NCBI RefSeq assembly: GCF_003334785.1
Contig: NZ_QOWV01000002.1
DNA from: Escherichia coli
GTDB lineage: Bacteria; Pseudomonadota; Gammaproteobacteria; Enterobacterales; Enterobacteriaceae
Length of the DNA: 64,000 nucleotides
Direction: 5' to 3' (one strand)
The notes beneath the pieces were generated by a model. The model did not search any database. It saw only the letters and a list, made by a program, of their open reading frames with translations, and was not told the DNA's origin. The translations under genes were made by a program, and so were the position numbers. Of the stretch, positions 2,873 through 29,018 are shown piece by piece (position 1 is the first letter of the stretch; each line of letters begins with the position of its first letter).

Positions 2873-4564
2873 ATGAAAACGCTGCTGATTATTGACGCTA
2901 ATCTCGGTCAGGCACGCGCCTATATGGCGAAGACCCTGCTGGGCGCGGCGGCGCGAAAAGCAAAACTGGAAATCATCGACAATCCGAACGACGCTGAAAT
3001 GGCGATTGTTCTCGGTGATTCCATCCCGAACGACAGCGCGCTGAACGGTAAAAATGTCTGGCTGGGCGATATTTCCCGGGCAGTTGCGCACCCTGAGCTG
3101 TTCCTGAGTGAAGCCAAAGGCCATGCGAAACCTTACACTGCGCCGGTCGCTGCGACAGCACCAGTTGCCGCCAGCGGTCCGAAACGCGTAGTTGCGGTGA
3201 CTGCTTGCCCGACTGGCGTAGCACACACCTTTATGGCGGCTGAAGCCATTGAAACCGAAGCGAAAAAACGTGGCTGGTGGGTGAAAGTTGAAACCCGTGG
3301 TTCTGTTGGCGCGGGTAATGCAATCACTCCCGAAGAAGTCGCAGCAGCGGATCTGGTGATTGTGGCGGCAGATATCGAAGTGGATCTGGCGAAATTTGCT
3401 GGTAAACCGATGTATCGTACCTCTACCGGTCTGGCGCTGAAGAAAACCGCGCAGGAACTGGATAAAGCGGTTGCTGAAGCAACGCCGTATGAACCGGCGG
3501 GCAAAGCTCAAACGGCGACCACTGAAAGTAAGAAAGAGAGTGCAGGCGCATACCGTCACTTGCTGACGGGCGTTTCTTACATGCTGCCGATGGTCGTTGC
3601 AGGTGGTCTGTGTATCGCGCTTTCTTTTGCTTTTGGTATCGAAGCGTTTAAAGAGCCGGGTACGTTGGCTGCGGCGCTGATGCAGATTGGTGGTGGTTCA
3701 GCCTTTGCGCTGATGGTGCCGGTACTGGCAGGTTATATTGCCTTTTCCATTGCCGATCGTCCGGGCCTCACTCCGGGTCTGATTGGCGGTATGCTGGCGG
3801 TCAGCACCGGTTCTGGCTTCATTGGTGGTATTATTGCGGGCTTCCTGGCTGGTTACATTGCGAAGTTAATCAGTACGCAATTGAAACTGCCACAGAGTAT
3901 GGAGGCGCTGAAACCGATCCTGATCATTCCGCTAATTTCCAGTCTGGTGGTCGGTCTGGCGATGATCTACCTGATCGGTAAACCAGTTGCTGGCATTCTC
4001 GAAGGGCTGACTCACTGGCTGCAGACCATGGGGACTGCGAATGCGGTTCTGCTGGGGGCGATCCTCGGTGGCATGATGTGTACTGACATGGGCGGTCCGG
4101 TAAACAAAGCAGCGTACGCATTCGGTGTGGGTCTGCTGAGTACTCAAACCTATGGCCCGATGGCGGCGATTATGGCGGCAGGTATGGTGCCACCGCTGGC
4201 AATGGGTCTGGCAACAATGGTGGCGCGTCGCAAATTCGACAAAGCGCAGCAGGAAGGTGGCAAAGCCGCTCTGGTATTGGGACTGTGCTTCATTTCGGAA
4301 GGTGCAATTCCGTTTGCTGCTCGTGATCCGATGCGTGTGCTGCCGTGCTGTATCGTGGGTGGGGCGCTGACTGGCGCAATCTCAATGGCGATTGGTGCGA
4401 AACTGATGGCACCGCACGGTGGTCTGTTTGTTCTGCTGATCCCTGGCGCTATTACGCCGGTATTGGGTTACCTGGTAGCAATTATTGCCGGTACGCTGGT
4501 GGCGGGTTTGGCCTATGCCTTCCTGAAACGTCCGGAAGTGGACGCAGTAGCGAAAGCAGCGTAA
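2873..4564 (+). CDS. fruA: Fructose PTS enzyme IIB'BC
   Basis: 563-aa ORF, duplicated IIB-like N-terminus followed by polytopic IIC membrane domain; RBS AGGAGAGG upstream. Confidence 0.95.
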   Translation: MKTLLIIDANLGQARAYMAKTLLGAAARKAKLEIIDNPNDAEMAIVLGDSIPNDSALNGKNVWLGDISRAVAHPELFLSEAKGHAKPYTAPVAATAPVAASGPKRVVAVTACPTGVAHTFMAAEAIETEAKKRGWWVKVETRGSVGAGNAITPEEVAAADLVIVAADIEVDLAKFAGKPMYRTSTGLALKKTAQELDKAVAEATPYEPAGKAQTATTESKKESAGAYRHLLTGVSYMLPMVVAGGLCIALSFAFGIEAFKEPGTLAAALMQIGGGSAFALMVPVLAGYIAFSIADRPGLTPGLIGGMLAVSTGSGFIGGIIAGFLAGYIAKLISTQLKLPQSMEALKPILIIPLISSLVVGLAMIYLIGKPVAGILEGLTHWLQTMGTANAVLLGAILGGMMCTDMGGPVNKAAYAFGVGLLSTQTYGPMAAIMAAGMVPPLAMGLATMVARRKFDKAQQEGGKAALVLGLCFISEGAIPFAARDPMRVLPCCIVGGALTGAISMAIGAKLMAPHGGLFVLLIPGAITPVLGYLVAIIAGTLVAGLAYAFLKRPEVDAVAKAA

Positions 4565-22473: not shown

Positions 22474-22503
22474 CGATCTGGATCACATTCGTTAACAAAA
22501 CGG

Positions 22504-22538
22504 CTGTAACCGTTTCCATTGCTGTGACTCGATTCACG
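22504..22538 (+). promoter_or_regulatory. galS promoter region: gal-operator-like site plus CRP-like site
   Basis: CTGTAACCGTTTCCAT resembles the GalR/GalS operator; adjacent TGTGACTCGATTCACG fits TGTGA-N6-TCACA. Confidence 0.55.
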
Positions 22539-22614
22539 AAGTCCTGTATTCAGTGCTGACAAAATAGCCGCCAGCAAGCAGTCATTTACTGCAATCTCAT
22601 AACAGGTAGTGAAT

Positions 22615-23655
22615 ATGATCACCATTCGTGATGTAGCGCGTCAGGCTGGCGTCTCTGTGGCAACGGTTTCCCGGGTGCTCAATAACAGCACGCTGGTCAG
22701 TGCCGACACGCGTGAAGCAGTAATGAAAGCCGTGAGTGAGCTGGATTATCGGCCAAACGCCAATGCCCAGGCGCTGGCAACTCAGGTTAGCGACACCATT
22801 GGCGTGGTGGTGATGGACGTTTCTGATGCGTTTTTCGGCGCGCTGGTAAAAGCGGTGGATCTGGTCGCTCAGCAGCATCAGAAATACGTGCTAATCGGCA
22901 ATAGCTATCATGAAGCGGAAAAAGAGCGTCACGCCATTGAGGTGTTAATTCGCCAGCGTTGTAATGCGTTGATTGTTCACTCAAAAGCATTGAGTGACGA
23001 TGAACTGGCGCAATTTATGGATAACATTCCCGGTATGGTGTTAATCAACCGCGTTGTGCCGGGGTACGCCCATCGTTGCGTTTGCCTGGATAATCTCAGC
23101 GGTGCCCGAATGGCGACGCGCATGTTGCTGAATAACGGTCATCAACGTATTGGTTATCTTTCTTCCAGCCACGGCATTGAAGATGACGCCATGCGTAAAG
23201 CAGGCTGGATGAGTGCGTTGAAAGAGCAGGATATTATTCCGCCGGAAAGCTGGATTGGCGCTGGTACGCCGGACATGCCGGGCGGTGAGGCGGCGATGGT
23301 TGAACTGCTGGGGCGCAATCTACAACTTACCGCTGTATTTGCTTATAACGACAATATGGCCGCTGGCGCACTGACAGCATTAAAAGATAATGGCATTGCG
23401 ATTCCGTTACATCTCTCAATCATCGGTTTCGATGATATTCCCATCGCCCGTTACACCGACCCGCAATTAACGACCGTGCGTTATCCCATTGCTTCAATGG
23501 CGAAATTAGCCACCGAACTGGCCTTGCAGGGGGCAGCAGGCAATATTGATCCTCGTGCCAGCCACTGTTTTATGCCGACGTTAGTGCGTCGCCATTCTGT
23601 CGCAACACGCCAGAATGCGGCGGCGATCACTAACTCAACAAATCAGGCGATGTAA
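22615..23655 (+). CDS. galS: LacI/GalR-family repressor of the mgl operon (galactose isorepressor)
   Basis: ORF with N-terminal [26 protein letters not shown]; ATG at 22615 chosen over the upstream GTG. Confidence 0.93.
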
Positions 23656-23668
23656 CCGCTTTCAATCT

Positions 23669-23684
23669 GTGAGTGATTTCACAG
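23669..23684 (+). promoter_or_regulatory. CRP binding site in mglB promoter
   Basis: TGTGAGTGATTTCACA, perfect TGTGA-N6-TCACA; a gal-operator-like ATGTAACCGCTTTCAAT lies just upstream (23650-23666). Confidence 0.75.
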
Positions 23685-23934
23685 TATCTTAACAATGTGA
23701 TAGCTATGATTGCACCGTTTTAACGTTGTAACCCGTATGTAACAGTGAATAATCACTTTTGCCGAGGTAACAGCGTCATAACAACAATTAAAGCCGTTTT
23801 CTGGAGCGTTACCGGGCATGGAAGAACGAATTTTAAAAAGTGAGCTTCGGCGTTCAGTAACACTTCATTAACTCTACTGCCCCGCCGAGCATTTATCTCA
23901 AGCACTACCCTGCATAAGAAAAACCGGAGATACC

Positions 23935-24933
23935 ATGAATAAGAAGGTGTTAACCCTGTCTGCTGTGATGGCCAGCATGTTATTCGGTGCCGCTGCACAC
24001 GCTGCTGATACTCGCATTGGTGTAACAATCTATAAGTACGACGATAACTTTATGTCTGTAGTGCGCAAGGCTATTGAGCAAGATGCGAAAGCCGCGCCAG
24101 ATGTTCAGCTGCTGATGAATGATTCTCAGAATGACCAGTCCAAGCAGAACGATCAGATCGACGTATTGCTGGCGAAAGGGGTGAAGGCACTGGCAATCAA
24201 CCTGGTTGACCCGGCAGCTGCGGGTACGGTGATTGAGAAAGCGCGTGGGCAAAACGTGCCGGTGGTTTTCTTCAACAAAGAACCGTCTCGTAAGGCGCTG
24301 GATAGCTACGACAAAGCCTACTACGTTGGCACTGACTCCAAAGAGTCCGGCATTATTCAAGGCGATTTGATTGCTAAACACTGGGCGGCGAATCAGGGTT
24401 GGGATCTGAACAAAGACGGTCAGATTCAGTTCGTACTGCTGAAAGGTGAACCGGGCCATCCGGATGCAGAAGCACGTACCACTTACGTGATTAAAGAATT
24501 GAACGATAAAGGCATCAAAACTGAACAGTTACAGTTAGATACCGCAATGTGGGACACCGCTCAGGCGAAAGATAAGATGGACGCCTGGCTGTCTGGCCCG
24601 AACGCCAACAAAATCGAAGTGGTTATCGCCAACAACGATGCGATGGCAATGGGCGCGGTTGAAGCGCTGAAAGCACACAACAAGTCCAGCATTCCGGTGT
24701 TTGGCGTCGATGCGCTGCCAGAAGCGCTGGCGCTGGTGAAATCCGGTGCACTGGCGGGCACCGTACTGAACGATGCTAACAACCAGGCGAAAGCGACCTT
24801 TGATCTGGCGAAAAACCTGGCCGATGGTAAAGGTGCGGCTGATGGCACCAACTGGAAAATCGACAACAAAGTGGTCCGCGTACCTTATGTTGGCGTAGAT
24901 AAAGACAACCTGGCTGAATTCAGCAAGAAATAA
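23935..24933 (+). CDS. mglB: Periplasmic D-galactose/D-glucose-binding protein
   Basis: 332-aa ORF with signal peptide ending AHA. Confidence 0.95.
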
Positions 24934-24941
24934 GACTGATT

Positions 24942-24968
24942 GGGCGCAGTCTATTACTGCGCCCTTAT
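24942..24968 (+). terminator. Intercistronic hairpin (putative partial terminator or mRNA stabiliser) between mglB and mglA
   Basis: Perfect 9-bp stem GGGCGCAGT / ACTGCGCCC with 5-nt loop followed by TTATTG. Confidence 0.55.
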
Positions 24969-24993
24969 TGTATGGCCAACAAGGTAAAATTAT

Positions 24994-26514
24994 ATGGTCA
25001 GCTCAACGACTCCGTCCTCCGGGGAATACTTGTTGGAAATGAGCGGTATCAACAAGTCCTTTCCTGGTGTTAAGGCACTTGATAACGTTAATTTAAAAGT
25101 CCGGCCACATTCTATCCATGCATTAATGGGGGAAAACGGTGCAGGAAAATCGACATTATTAAAATGCCTGTTTGGTATTTATCAAAAAGACTCCGGCACC
25201 ATTTTATTCCAGGGTAAAGAGATCGATTTCCATTCTGCAAAAGAAGCCCTGGAAAATGGTATTTCGATGGTACACCAGGAGTTAAACCTGGTATTACAAC
25301 GTTCGGTGATGGATAACATGTGGCTGGGGCGATATCCCACCAAAGGCATGTTTGTCGATCAGGACAAAATGTACCGCGAAACCAAAGCGATTTTTGACGA
25401 ACTGGATATTGATATCGATCCGCGTGCGCGCGTCGGCACATTATCCGTTTCGCAAATGCAGATGATCGAAATCGCCAAAGCGTTTTCCTATAACGCGAAA
25501 ATTGTGATTATGGATGAACCGACTTCTTCGTTAACCGAAAAAGAGGTCAATCATCTGTTCACTATTATTCGTAAATTAAAAGAGCGCGGCTGCGGTATTG
25601 TTTATATCTCGCATAAAATGGAAGAAATCTTCCAGTTATGTGATGAAGTTACCGTATTGCGCGACGGTCAGTGGATCGCCACCGAACCGCTGGCAGGACT
25701 GACGATGGACAAGATCATCGCCATGATGGTTGGGCGTTCTCTTAACCAGCGTTTCCCTGACAAAGAAAACAAACCGGGCGAAGTCATCCTCGAGGTACGT
25801 AACCTGACGTCACTGCGCCAGCCGTCGATTCGCGATGTCTCGTTTGATCTGCATAAAGGGGAGATCCTCGGTATTGCCGGTCTGGTGGGGGCGAAACGTA
25901 CCGATATTGTTGAGACGTTATTTGGTATTCGCGAGAAATCGGCTGGCACCATAACGTTGCACGGCAAACAGATCAATAACCATAATGCCAACGAAGCCAT
26001 AAACCATGGATTTGCACTGGTAACTGAGGAGCGCCGCTCAACGGGAATTTATGCCTATCTGGATATTGGTTTTAACTCGTTAATTTCCAATATTCGCAAC
26101 TACAAAAATAAAGTTGGTTTACTGGATAACTCGCGGATGAAAAGCGATACCCAGTGGGTGATTGATTCGATGCGGGTAAAAACGCCGGGTCATCGGACGC
26201 AAATTGGTTCGCTCTCCGGTGGTAATCAGCAAAAGGTGATTATTGGTCGCTGGCTACTAACGCAACCAGAAATATTAATGCTCGATGAACCGACGCGCGG
26301 TATTGATGTCGGGGCGAAGTTTGAAATTTATCAGTTAATTGCCGAACTGGCGAAGAAAGGCAAGGGGATTATTATTATCTCCTCTGAAATGCCTGAGTTG
26401 TTAGGGATAACAGACCGTATTCTGGTCATGAGCAATGGTCTCGTTTCCGGAATTGTCGATACAAAAACAACAACGCAAAACGAAATTCTGCGTCTTGCGT
26501 CTTTGCACCTTTAA
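24994..26514 (+). CDS. mglA: Galactose/methyl-galactoside ABC transporter ATP-binding protein (duplicated ABC domains)
   Basis: 506-aa ORF with Walker [10 protein letters not shown]. Confidence 0.95.
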
Positions 26515-26529
26515 GATTAGGGGCTTCCC

Positions 26530-27540
26530 ATGAGTGCGTTAAATAAGAAAAGTTTTCTTACTTACCTGAAAGAGGGCGGTATTTACGTCGTTCTTTTAGT
26601 TTTGCTGGCGATTATTATTTTCCAGGACCCAACATTTTTAAGTCTGTTGAACTTAAGTAATATTCTCACCCAGTCATCGGTGCGTATTATTATCGCGCTC
26701 GGTGTGGCAGGGTTAATTGTCACCCAGGGGACCGATCTTTCTGCTGGTCGTCAGGTAGGGCTGGCGGCAGTGGTGGCTGCGACATTATTGCAGTCCATGG
26801 ATAACGCCAACAAAGTGTTCCCGGAAATGGCGACGATGCCGATTGCGCTGGTTATTCTGATTGTCTGTGCCATTGGTGCGGTGATCGGTTTGATCAACGG
26901 TCTGATTATCGCTTATCTCAACGTGACGCCGTTCATTACCACGCTCGGCACGATGATCATCGTCTATGGCATCAACTCGCTCTATTACGACTTTGTCGGG
27001 GCGTCGCCAATTTCTGGTTTTGACAGTGGCTTCTCTACCTTTGCTCAGGGCTTTGTCGCGCTGGGGAGTTTCCGTCTCTCTTACATCACCTTCTACGCGT
27101 TGATTGCGGTGGCGTTCGTCTGGGTGTTGTGGAACAAAACCCGCTTCGGTAAGAACATTTTTGCCATTGGCGGTAACCCGGAAGCGGCAAAAGTATCTGG
27201 TGTCAACGTCGGCCTGAACCTGCTGATGATCTACGCGTTGTCTGGCGTGTTCTATGCCTTTGGCGGGATGTTAGAAGCCGGACGTATCGGCTCTGCCACC
27301 AACAACCTCGGCTTTATGTATGAGCTGGATGCTATCGCGGCGTGCGTGGTAGGCGGTGTATCGTTCAGCGGCGGTGTGGGGACGGTGATTGGCGTGGTGA
27401 CCGGGGTAATTATTTTTACCGTCATCAACTATGGCCTGACGTATATCGGCGTAAACCCATACTGGCAGTACATCATCAAAGGGGCGATTATTATCTTCGC
27501 CGTAGCGCTGGATTCACTGAAATACGCGCGTAAGAAATGA
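26530..27540 (+). CDS. mglC: Galactose/methyl-galactoside ABC transporter permease
   Basis: 336-aa polytopic membrane ORF. Confidence 0.95.
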   Translation: MSALNKKSFLTYLKEGGIYVVLLVLLAIIIFQDPTFLSLLNLSNILTQSSVRIIIALGVAGLIVTQGTDLSAGRQVGLAAVVAATLLQSMDNANKVFPEMATMPIALVILIVCAIGAVIGLINGLIIAYLNVTPFITTLGTMIIVYGINSLYYDFVGASPISGFDSGFSTFAQGFVALGSFRLSYITFYALIAVAFVWVLWNKTRFGKNIFAIGGNPEAAKVSGVNVGLNLLMIYALSGVFYAFGGMLEAGRIGSATNNLGFMYELDAIAACVVGGVSFSGGVGTVIGVVTGVIIFTVINYGLTYIGVNPYWQYIIKGAIIIFAVALDSLKYARKK

Positions 27541-27597
27541 TGTGAATGTGGTCCGCATTCGGTCATAAACGCACATAACATCATGATCTGTGTGGTT

Positions 27598-27780
27598 TTG
27601 TAGGCCGGATAAGGCGTTCACGCCGCATCCGGCAACAGGAGCCAAATGCCGGATGCAACGCTGGCGCGTTTTATCCGGCCTACAATAAGCTCAACATACT
27701 GATTTGTATGGTTTTGTAGGCCGGATAAGGCGTTCAAGCCGCATCCGGCGACAGGAACCAAATGCCGGATGCGTCTCTGG
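27598..27780. repeat. BIME: cluster of about four REP units in alternating orientation
   Basis: Repeated TGTAGGCCGGATAAGGCGTTCA(C/A)GCCGCATCCGGC units between convergent mglC and preA. Confidence 0.85.
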
Positions 27781-27782
27781 TT

Positions 27783-29018
27783 TTACAACGTTACCGGGTG
27801 TTCTTTCTCGCCTTTCTTAAACTTCACTTCCCCGAGCTCAATACAACCCACCGGGCAGACGTGACCACAAAGCAGACAACCCACACATTTCTCGGTATTA
27901 CAATGCGGTGTGCGGGTTTTCTCGCTCCATTCCATCGCCTGGTGACCGCCGTCGTAACAGGAAATATAACAGCGTCCACAGCCAACACATTTATCAAGAT
28001 TGATACGGGGATAGACAATATAACTGCGGTCTAAATCTTCCGCCGGGACAATATTGTTATTCGCCAGACCTACCATCTCCTGCAGCGAATCAAATCCCTG
28101 ATCGGCGAGATAATGCGACAACCCGCTTGCCATATCTTCCACTATCCGATACCCGTACTGCATGATGCCGGTGGTCACCTGTAACGTTGCTGCGCCGAGC
28201 AATAAAAACTCAGCCGCATCCTCCCAGGTTTCAATGCCGCCGATACCGCTGATTGGGAAATCGCGCAGTTCTGGATGGGTGCGCATTTGCTGAATGAAGC
28301 GCAGGGCGATCGGTTTTACCGCTTTACCGGAATATCCGGAAATACTCGATTTTCCGTTAACGATCGGCATACCGATTTTCTGATTAAGATCGATATTGGT
28401 GATGGATTTAACGGTGTTAATCGCCGCAATGCCATCTGCGCCGCCGCGCTTCGCCGCCAGCGCCACTTCGCACATATCACCGATATTCGGCGTCATCTTC
28501 GCCAGCATTGGCAGCGTGGAACCCCGTTTCACTGCCCGACAATATTTTTCTACCAGCTCCGGGCTTTGCCCGACATCGCTACCCATCGCATGAGAAGTCA
28601 TTTGCGGACAGGAGAAGTTACACTCGATCATATCCGCGCCAGCTTCTTGCACCAGGCGCGCCAGCTCCTCCCATTGCTGCTCATTTTCCCCCATGATCGA
28701 AGCGATCAATACTTTGTCCGGGTAATCTTCCTTCAGCCGACGCAGGGCGGCCAGATTCTCTTCCAACGGATGTTCAGCAATCTGCTCCATATTTTTGAAG
28801 CCGATAAAACCGGTATCTTCTTTCACCAGATGATCAAAACGCGGCGAGACTTCGTTGGCGATAAAAAAGCCGATCGTTTTAAACACCACACCGCCCCAAC
28901 CTGTGTCGTAGGCTTTGGCACACATCTCATAGCAGTTGCCTACCGGCGAAGAAGAGAGGCAGAACGGGTTGGGAAACTTCACGCCGCAAAAAGTAATCGA
29001 AAGATCTTTCGTTAACAT
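27783..29018 (-). CDS. preA: NAD-dependent dihydropyrimidine dehydrogenase subunit PreA
   Basis: C-terminal 4Fe-4S ferredoxin motifs (CVGCGRC, CPVGC); ATG at 29018 (MLTKDLSI...) preferred over the upstream TTG; overlaps preT stop. Confidence 0.92.

Follow-up and report, generated by a model that had tools for sequence, protein, structure and literature searches.

The mglB-mglA spacer and its hairpin

The window, that is, the whole stretch of 64,000 nucleotides of Escherichia coli DNA that was analysed, matches E. coli K-12 MG1655 at 100% identity around the hairpin described here, and each of the 5,426 complete E. coli genomes contains the region. According to the RefSeq annotation of the identical MG1655 stretch, the gene order on the + strand is yeiB, galS, mglB, mglA and mglC, with preA on the opposite strand. 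The features on which the analysis bears are the following (window coordinates, with the source of each assignment in brackets):

23927-23930, + strand: mglB Shine-Dalgarno sequence GGAG, strong (sequence)
23935-24933, + strand: mglB, gene of the periplasmic galactose/glucose-binding protein, the stabilised upstream segment (ORF list, RefSeq annotation)
end at 24933, + strand: mglB stop codon TAA (sequence)
24934-24993, + strand: mglB-mglA spacer, 60 nt, exactly the segment to which the preliminary description referred
24942-24964, + strand: hairpin, perfect 9 bp with 7 G-C pairs (sequence, folds, scan, covariation, Dar & Sorek S6)
24942-24950, + strand: hairpin 5' arm, GGGCGCAGT (sequence)
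24951-24955, + strand: hairpin loop, CTATT (sequence)
24956-24964, + strand: hairpin 3' arm, ACTGCGCCC (sequence)
24965-24972, + strand: U-rich tail, TTATTGTA (sequence, Term-seq, T-score)
24981-24984, + strand: putative mglA Shine-Dalgarno sequence AAGG, 9 nt before the ATG and within a conserved block, GGCCAACAAGGTAWAATT
24994, + strand: mglA start codon ATG (sequence)
24994-26514, + strand: mglA, gene of the ABC-transporter ATPase, the less stable downstream segment (ORF list, annotation, half-life and abundance ratios)
26530-27540, + strand: mglC, permease gene, last of the operon (ORF list, annotation)

The preliminary description had reported, in the mglB-mglA spacer, a perfect 9-bp hairpin with a CTATT loop and a short T-rich run after the stem. 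Sequence and folding confirmed the hairpin, which starts 8 nt after the stop codon in E. coli, and the T-rich run proved accurate but modest, T accounting for 4 of the 5 bases nearest the stem and for 5 of the nearest 8. From position 24965 onward, the spacer reads TTATTGTATGG. The 9-bp stem was present in both the MFE and the centroid structure when the RNA was folded in a 76-nt context (z = -2.89), and the same stem was recovered in both structures of a 260-nt context; the energy of the bare hairpin is -16.5 kcal/mol. The short fold also paired UGGCCA (24973-24978) with UGGUCA (24995-25000), a pairing that was lost in the 260-nt fold. A weak pairing of AGACUG (24933-24938) with CAGUCU (24947-24952), which the scan for terminator-like sites returned as a minus-strand site, could in principle compete with the 5' arm of the hairpin, and was treated as a chance occurrence because its sequence is confined to Escherichia.

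Perfect hairpins of at least 9 bp are more numerous in the 64-kb window (9 distinct; 11 entries were listed, two hairpins appearing twice with different stem/loop splits) than in 100 dinucleotide shuffles (1.9 +/- 1.7), and those with at least 7 G-C pairs number 4 as listed (3 distinct). Since only about 0.31 hairpins of the latter kind are expected per 64 kb, which corresponds to about 0.0003 when scaled to a single 60-nt spacer, the presence of one between mglB and mglA is not due to chance.

Conservation and covariation of the hairpin in Enterobacteriaceae

The comparison set consisted of 80 Enterobacteriaceae loci, one genome per species, scanned with MglB, to which MG1655 was added (n = 81). 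The mglB stop and the mglA start were placed by tblastn, and the spacers extracted between them measured 60-249 nt. A hairpin with a GGGCG...CGCCC core was found after the mglB stop in 72 of the 81 loci, at a distance of 6-24 nt from the stop in all but two; the two exceptions are Citrobacter loci (L022 and L044), in which an inserted element shifts the hairpin to 130-137 nt after the stop. The remaining nine loci fall into two groups, one with an unrelated hairpin and the other with an insertion in the loop. In the first, Trabulsiella, Pluralibacter and one Citrobacter carry at the same place an unrelated strong hairpin, CCCGUGCUGA...UCAGCACGGG, while Cedecea and Buttiauxella agrestis have other unrelated stems there. 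The second comprises Raoultella (L057 and L066) and Enterobacter sp. 10-1 (L071), in which the outer stem is kept around a large insertion (spacers of 177-249 nt); here, the outer stem is of the Klebsiella type (CGGGCG...CGCCCG, AUUAUUCC) and 70-170 nt of structured sequence replace the loop, a pattern which suggests insertion into the hairpin loop. Within E. coli, the exact K-12 spacer was found in 1,515 genomes, and another 3,241 genomes differ from it mostly by two bases; judging from the 96.7% identity of the sampled rows, we infer that this two-base variant corresponds to the CGTTT loop of locus L002. The stem is stable and the loop polymorphic in this species, in which a compensated-stem variant (AAU/AUU) is rare.

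Inserted sequences were observed in a few of these spacers. In the two Citrobacter loci mentioned above and in Buttiauxella agrestis (L081), 120-130 nt are inserted between the mglB stop and the hairpin (locus positions 3500-3640), in what we take, by eye, to resemble an ERIC/IRU element. Similarly, the Salmonella arizonae spacer (L043, locus positions 3545-3600) shows after the hairpin what is presumably a REP-like palindrome, again judged by eye.

Covariation was assessed in a MAFFT alignment (A1) of 56 distinct sequences having both arms in register, using an 11-pair structure. Paired cells amounted to 86.4%, as against 76.3% in shuffles and 31-55% with the partners slid, and the covariation score was 0.306, as against 0.133 in shuffles (0 of 500 reached 0.306) and 0.03-0.09 with the partner columns slid. 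The four pairs of the GGCG core are invariant, and the outermost G-C pair differs in one sequence. By comparison, the next three pairs (10-24, 11-23 and 12-22 of A1) vary on both sides, occurring as C-G/U-A/U-G, A-U/G-C/G-U and A-U/C-G/G-C/U-A, with only 0-3 unpaired cells of 56. The sequences had been selected for at least 6 contiguous pairs with GGCG/CGCC, which could bias pairs 5-10 and has no effect on pairs 11-13. Given that G·U cells outnumber A·C cells by 24 to 4, the folded species is the sense-strand RNA, and not an antisense RNA or a DNA cruciform. Overall, this comparative evidence from aligned sequences shows that the hairpin has been under selection as a sense-strand RNA structure across Enterobacteriaceae, and it is this, namely compensatory evolution together with lineage-specific replacement of the hairpin, that the present analysis modestly adds.

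RNA 3' ends, mRNA decay and the role of the hairpin

The curated Term-seq data of Adams et al. 2021 (eLife, PMC7815308, supplementary file 1) contain a "primary" mglB 3' end at NC_000913.3 2239314(-); two of the three condition sheets contain it, with 147,960 and 77,438 reads. The sequence context given for this end is TTCAGCAAGAAATAAGACTGATTGGGCGCAGTCTATTACTGCGCCCTTATT on one side and GTATGGCCAA on the other. The format of these rows (50 nt, 3' end, 10 nt) was checked on the sgrS row, where the end is the last U of the U8 tract; the mglB end is accordingly the last T of TTATT, at window position 24969, 5 nt past the stem. From their position in the file, the two sheets containing the end appear to be LB OD 0.4 and LB OD 2.0, and the sheet without it M63 glucose; under this assignment, its absence from the latter would fit catabolite repression of mgl.

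Independent evidence comes from Dar & Sorek 2018 (PLoS Genet 14:e1007354, PMC5927463), who worked in E. coli BW25113 and combined Term-seq with measurements of RNA decay after rifampicin. In their S3 Table, mglC-mglA-mglB figures among the differentially decaying operons, mglB being the stabilised gene; the mglB/mglA ratio is 2.65 +/- 0.37 for half-life and 3.04 +/- 0.57 for steady-state mRNA. In their S6 Table of "E. coli 3' protective structures" (26 listed), the mglB/mglA row displays the same 9-bp stem (-17.7 kcal/mol), its sequence ending ...GGGCGCAGTCTATTACTGCGCCCTTATT, with a 3' end identical to that of Adams et al. (window 24969). Hence, two independent published Term-seq sets place an in vivo RNA 3' end immediately past the stem, a published rifampicin time course gives the upstream segment a longer half-life and a higher level, and an energetically stable stem-loop, as is expected of a 3' protective structure, lies at the 3' boundary of the stabilised segment. 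The screen of Dar & Sorek dropped gene pairs in which a Term-seq site of the upstream gene came with a hairpin and a U stretch, as well as pairs with substantial bicyclomycin-sensitive (Rho) termination, and mglB-mglA passed; the remaining hairpins were read by these authors as barriers to 3'-to-5' exonucleases, as at malE-malF, a higher ribosome density on the stabilised gene steering the initial endonuclease cut downstream (PMC5927463). As mglB is absent from their tables for E. aerogenes and Salmonella, the published decay pattern is that of E. coli. In the SMRT-Cappable-seq supplements mgl is not mentioned, and the accessible literature reports neither an RNase E site nor a dependence on exonucleases for the mgl operon, and no mutant of the hairpin.

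The mglB-mglA hairpin is therefore already known, being catalogued with data for this very operon, and is an ordinary case of a well-known design: the element of Dar & Sorek is identical in sequence, fold and Term-seq 3' end (...GCGCCCTTATT), although it figures there as a table row only, unnamed in the text, without a mutant and without the cross-species covariation presented above. The preliminary description had assigned to the hairpin either partial termination or 3' protection, by which the binding protein would be expressed more highly than the membrane components, and this is borne out by the published 3' end and decay data. The Term-seq check that it named had already been published twice, with a strong mglB 3' end at 24969, and the outcome that would have spoken against it, no 3' ends at the hairpin and equal mglB and mglA mRNA, is contradicted by these ends and by the ratio of 3.04. 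Of the two mechanisms it offered, 3' protection has direct support, while partial termination is less likely and is not needed to account for the data.

On balance, we consider it probable that the hairpin is a stabiliser of a discrete mglB mRNA, the 3' ends of which arise mainly by processing. Under this explanation, mglBAC is transcribed from the mglB promoter, and most 3' ends would be produced by a cut of the read-through transcript, presumably by RNase E and within or ahead of mglA, and by subsequent trimming to the stem. RNAs ending 5 nt past the GC-rich stem would resist the 3'-to-5' exonucleases (PNPase, RNase II), so that the mglB segment would outlive the mglA-mglC segment and accumulate about threefold; weak intrinsic termination at UUAUU would provide at most a minor share of the ends. 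Together with the stronger mglB ribosome-binding site (the putative mglA Shine-Dalgarno sequence, AAGG with 9-nt spacing, is weaker than the GGAG of mglB), the hairpin would then yield the periplasmic binding protein in excess over the membrane and ATPase subunits. With its value of 2.65, the half-life ratio comes close to explaining the mRNA ratio of 3.04, leaving at face value about 13% for termination (1 - 2.65/3.04); by our own arithmetic, the published ratios leave room for about 0-30%. We reason that the ratios would, within error, also be compatible with about 30% termination combined with a long-lived terminated mglB RNA, and Term-seq is unable to separate a termination end from a trimmed end. 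Since every reading requires a long-lived, hairpin-ended mglB RNA, the stabiliser role is the firm part.

A partial intrinsic terminator, at which about 30% or more of the polymerases would release at UUAUU to give a monocistronic mglB mRNA, only read-through polymerases reaching mglA and mglC and the same hairpin also protecting the released RNA, is a possibility that we hold to be rather unlikely. The GC-rich stem-loop of an intrinsic terminator (about 5-14 bp, loop of 3-8 nt) is certainly there, with 9 bp and a loop of 5 nt, and 4 of the next 5 nt are U; the 3' end lies within this U run, and the invariant G-C pairs are at the base of the stem beside the tail, where terminators need them. 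The tail (UUAUUGUA; 5 U of 8) has a T-score of 3.88, compared with a window baseline of 2.09 +/- 0.59, which is above the 95th percentile (3.26) and below the 99th of window positions, and the hairpin ranked top in a terminator-like consensus scan of 6 kb. Likewise, the T-score exceeds the window 95th percentile in 45-56% of species, UUUU directly follows the stem in many genera, and Enterobacter-type spacers carry UUUUAUAAC, in one Enterobacter 21 nt from the stop. The classical d score (d'Aubenton-Carafa formula) was above zero for E. coli, as it was for 85% of the distinct species sequences. However, the U tract, for which intrinsic terminators have a usual length of about 7-9 nt right behind the stem, is short and interrupted here, and the hairpin is kept in lineages with a tail that is not U-rich, such as Kluyvera (AAUACUGA), Klebsiella (AUUAUUCC) and Buttiauxella (AUUCAGAU); the constant feature is the structure, not the terminator tail. 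In addition, most of the 3.04-fold abundance step is already explained by the half-life ratio, and with the stop 8 nt before the stem, a terminating ribosome would be expected to cover the 5' arm in coupled transcription-translation. Finally, the tail passes the terminator-like scan used here, yet it was not counted as a U stretch, and the site was not flagged, in the terminator screen of Dar & Sorek (PMC5927463). It is very unlikely that the ends originate instead from Rho-dependent termination inside mglA, where poorly translated mglA RNA would recruit Rho and the heterogeneous ends would be trimmed by exonucleases back to the first stable stem, even though the putative mglA Shine-Dalgarno sequence is the weaker one, an internal mglA 3' end lies at window 25456, and a passage of a review (PMC7863352) places Rho-dependent terminators within mglA and mglC, with reference to Peters et al. 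2009 and Ciampi 2006. Supplementary file 2 of Adams et al. 2021 lists no Rho termination region in mgl, the mglA-internal end was scored there as not Rho-dependent (0.91, "No"; PMC7815308), and Dar & Sorek, who excluded bicyclomycin-sensitive pairs, kept mglB-mglA (PMC5927463).

That the hairpin belongs to a dispersed-repeat family (REP/BIME-type, as at malE-malF and hisJ-hisQ) and acts through the properties of that family rather than as a locus-specific structure appears extremely unlikely. REP/BIME copies do lie just after mglC (window 27603-27680 and 27719-27782; Rfam naRNA4, 88 and 38 bits), and the Salmonella arizonae spacer has, by eye, the REP-like insert noted above. An Rfam scan of 22500-28500 at E <= 1 found no match at the hairpin and only REP/naRNA4 after mglC, the 60-nt spacer is single per genome (median 1 place), and its sequence is unlike the REP consensus. 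With no Rfam match and single-copy status, REP/BIME membership of the hairpin was ruled out for E. coli, although REP elements fill this role in other binding-protein operons (PMC5927463). The copies after mglC, which correspond to the "REP156abc" given for mglBAC in PMC10100675, indicate that the operon ends in REP hairpins, while its internal boundary uses a non-REP hairpin.

The closest known counterpart of the proposed stabiliser is found in another operon of the binding-protein-first ABC type, malE-malF (Newbury et al. 1987, as described in PMC5927463), where the more stable upstream mRNA has its end at a stable stem-loop just behind the binding-protein gene (malE/malF ratios of 3.2 and 3.3; PMC5927463); the mal element consists of multi-copy REP hairpins without a U-rich tail, whereas that of mgl is single-copy, shorter, non-REP and has a U-rich tail. 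Leaky intrinsic terminators within operons, of which a section of a review (PMC7863352) gives T1 between rpsU and dnaG, resemble the mgl hairpin in having a GC-rich stem and a U tail between co-transcribed genes and in that the downstream genes need read-through. They differ in that the mgl tail is short (UUAUU), that decay, in the published data, accounts for most of the expression step, and that termination is only putative at mgl. The hairpin would explain how one promoter gives more of the periplasmic binding protein, which is also the galactose chemoreceptor, than of the ATPase and permease, an excess which is textbook design for ABC importers.

A more speculative idea, to which we attach little probability, is that the element is dual-purpose, a ribosome-gated weak terminator through which the MglB:MglAC ratio would be open to adjustment instead of being fixed. 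The 5-bp GGGCG/CGCCC base, invariant in about 70 species, and the 6-24 nt between stop and stem might set how often the 5' arm is masked; the share of mglB-only transcripts would depend on the coupling of mglB translation to transcription, and this coupling could in turn be altered when Spot 42/Hfq represses mglB translation. Work in Salmonella showed that Spot 42, acting with Hfq, pairs in the 5' UTR of mglB and thereby represses the gene (Holmqvist et al. 2016, PMC5207318), and repression by UhpU was reported in a 2025 PNAS paper; translation of the stabilised gene is thus itself regulated. In the window, the mglB 5' UTR extends over approximately 23760-23934.

Further observations in the mgl operon

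The block GGCCAACAAGGTAWAATT (24975-24993), just before the mglA ATG, is nearly invariant in Escherichia, Citrobacter, Enterobacter and Kosakonia, while the rest of the spacer varies, and a block containing AAGG is conserved in most of the spacers of the 80 species. When the same position was compared in L006-L064, a second clade was seen to have CGCAGCCAGGTATAACT instead. The conservation of GGCCAACAAGGTAWAATT exceeds what a 4-nt Shine-Dalgarno sequence needs.

In E. coli K-12 AB1157 (NZ_CP076404.1; L082, 2501-2545), the sequence ...ACTGCGCCCTTA is immediately followed by an IS5 element, which begins 3 nt past the hairpin. The junction corresponds to window 24967, and mglA, mglC and the following sequence up to part of sanA are missing. 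This deletion is probably the basis of the strain's old mgl allele, "mgl-51".

Other Term-seq ends were present in the region. An abundant "orphan" 3' end (92,182 reads), scored as not Rho-dependent, lies at window 23785, 150 nt upstream of the mglB ATG and about 25 nt downstream of a promoter-like site (23726-23753); it could be left by decay or belong to a very short leader RNA. Besides the mglA end at 25456, Adams et al. 2021 (PMC7815308) reported an ORF-internal end in mglC (window 27023), which belongs to the candidate sRNA "mglC int", having its own promoter, a northern band in LB and RIL-seq chimeras with ArcZ (PMC7815308).
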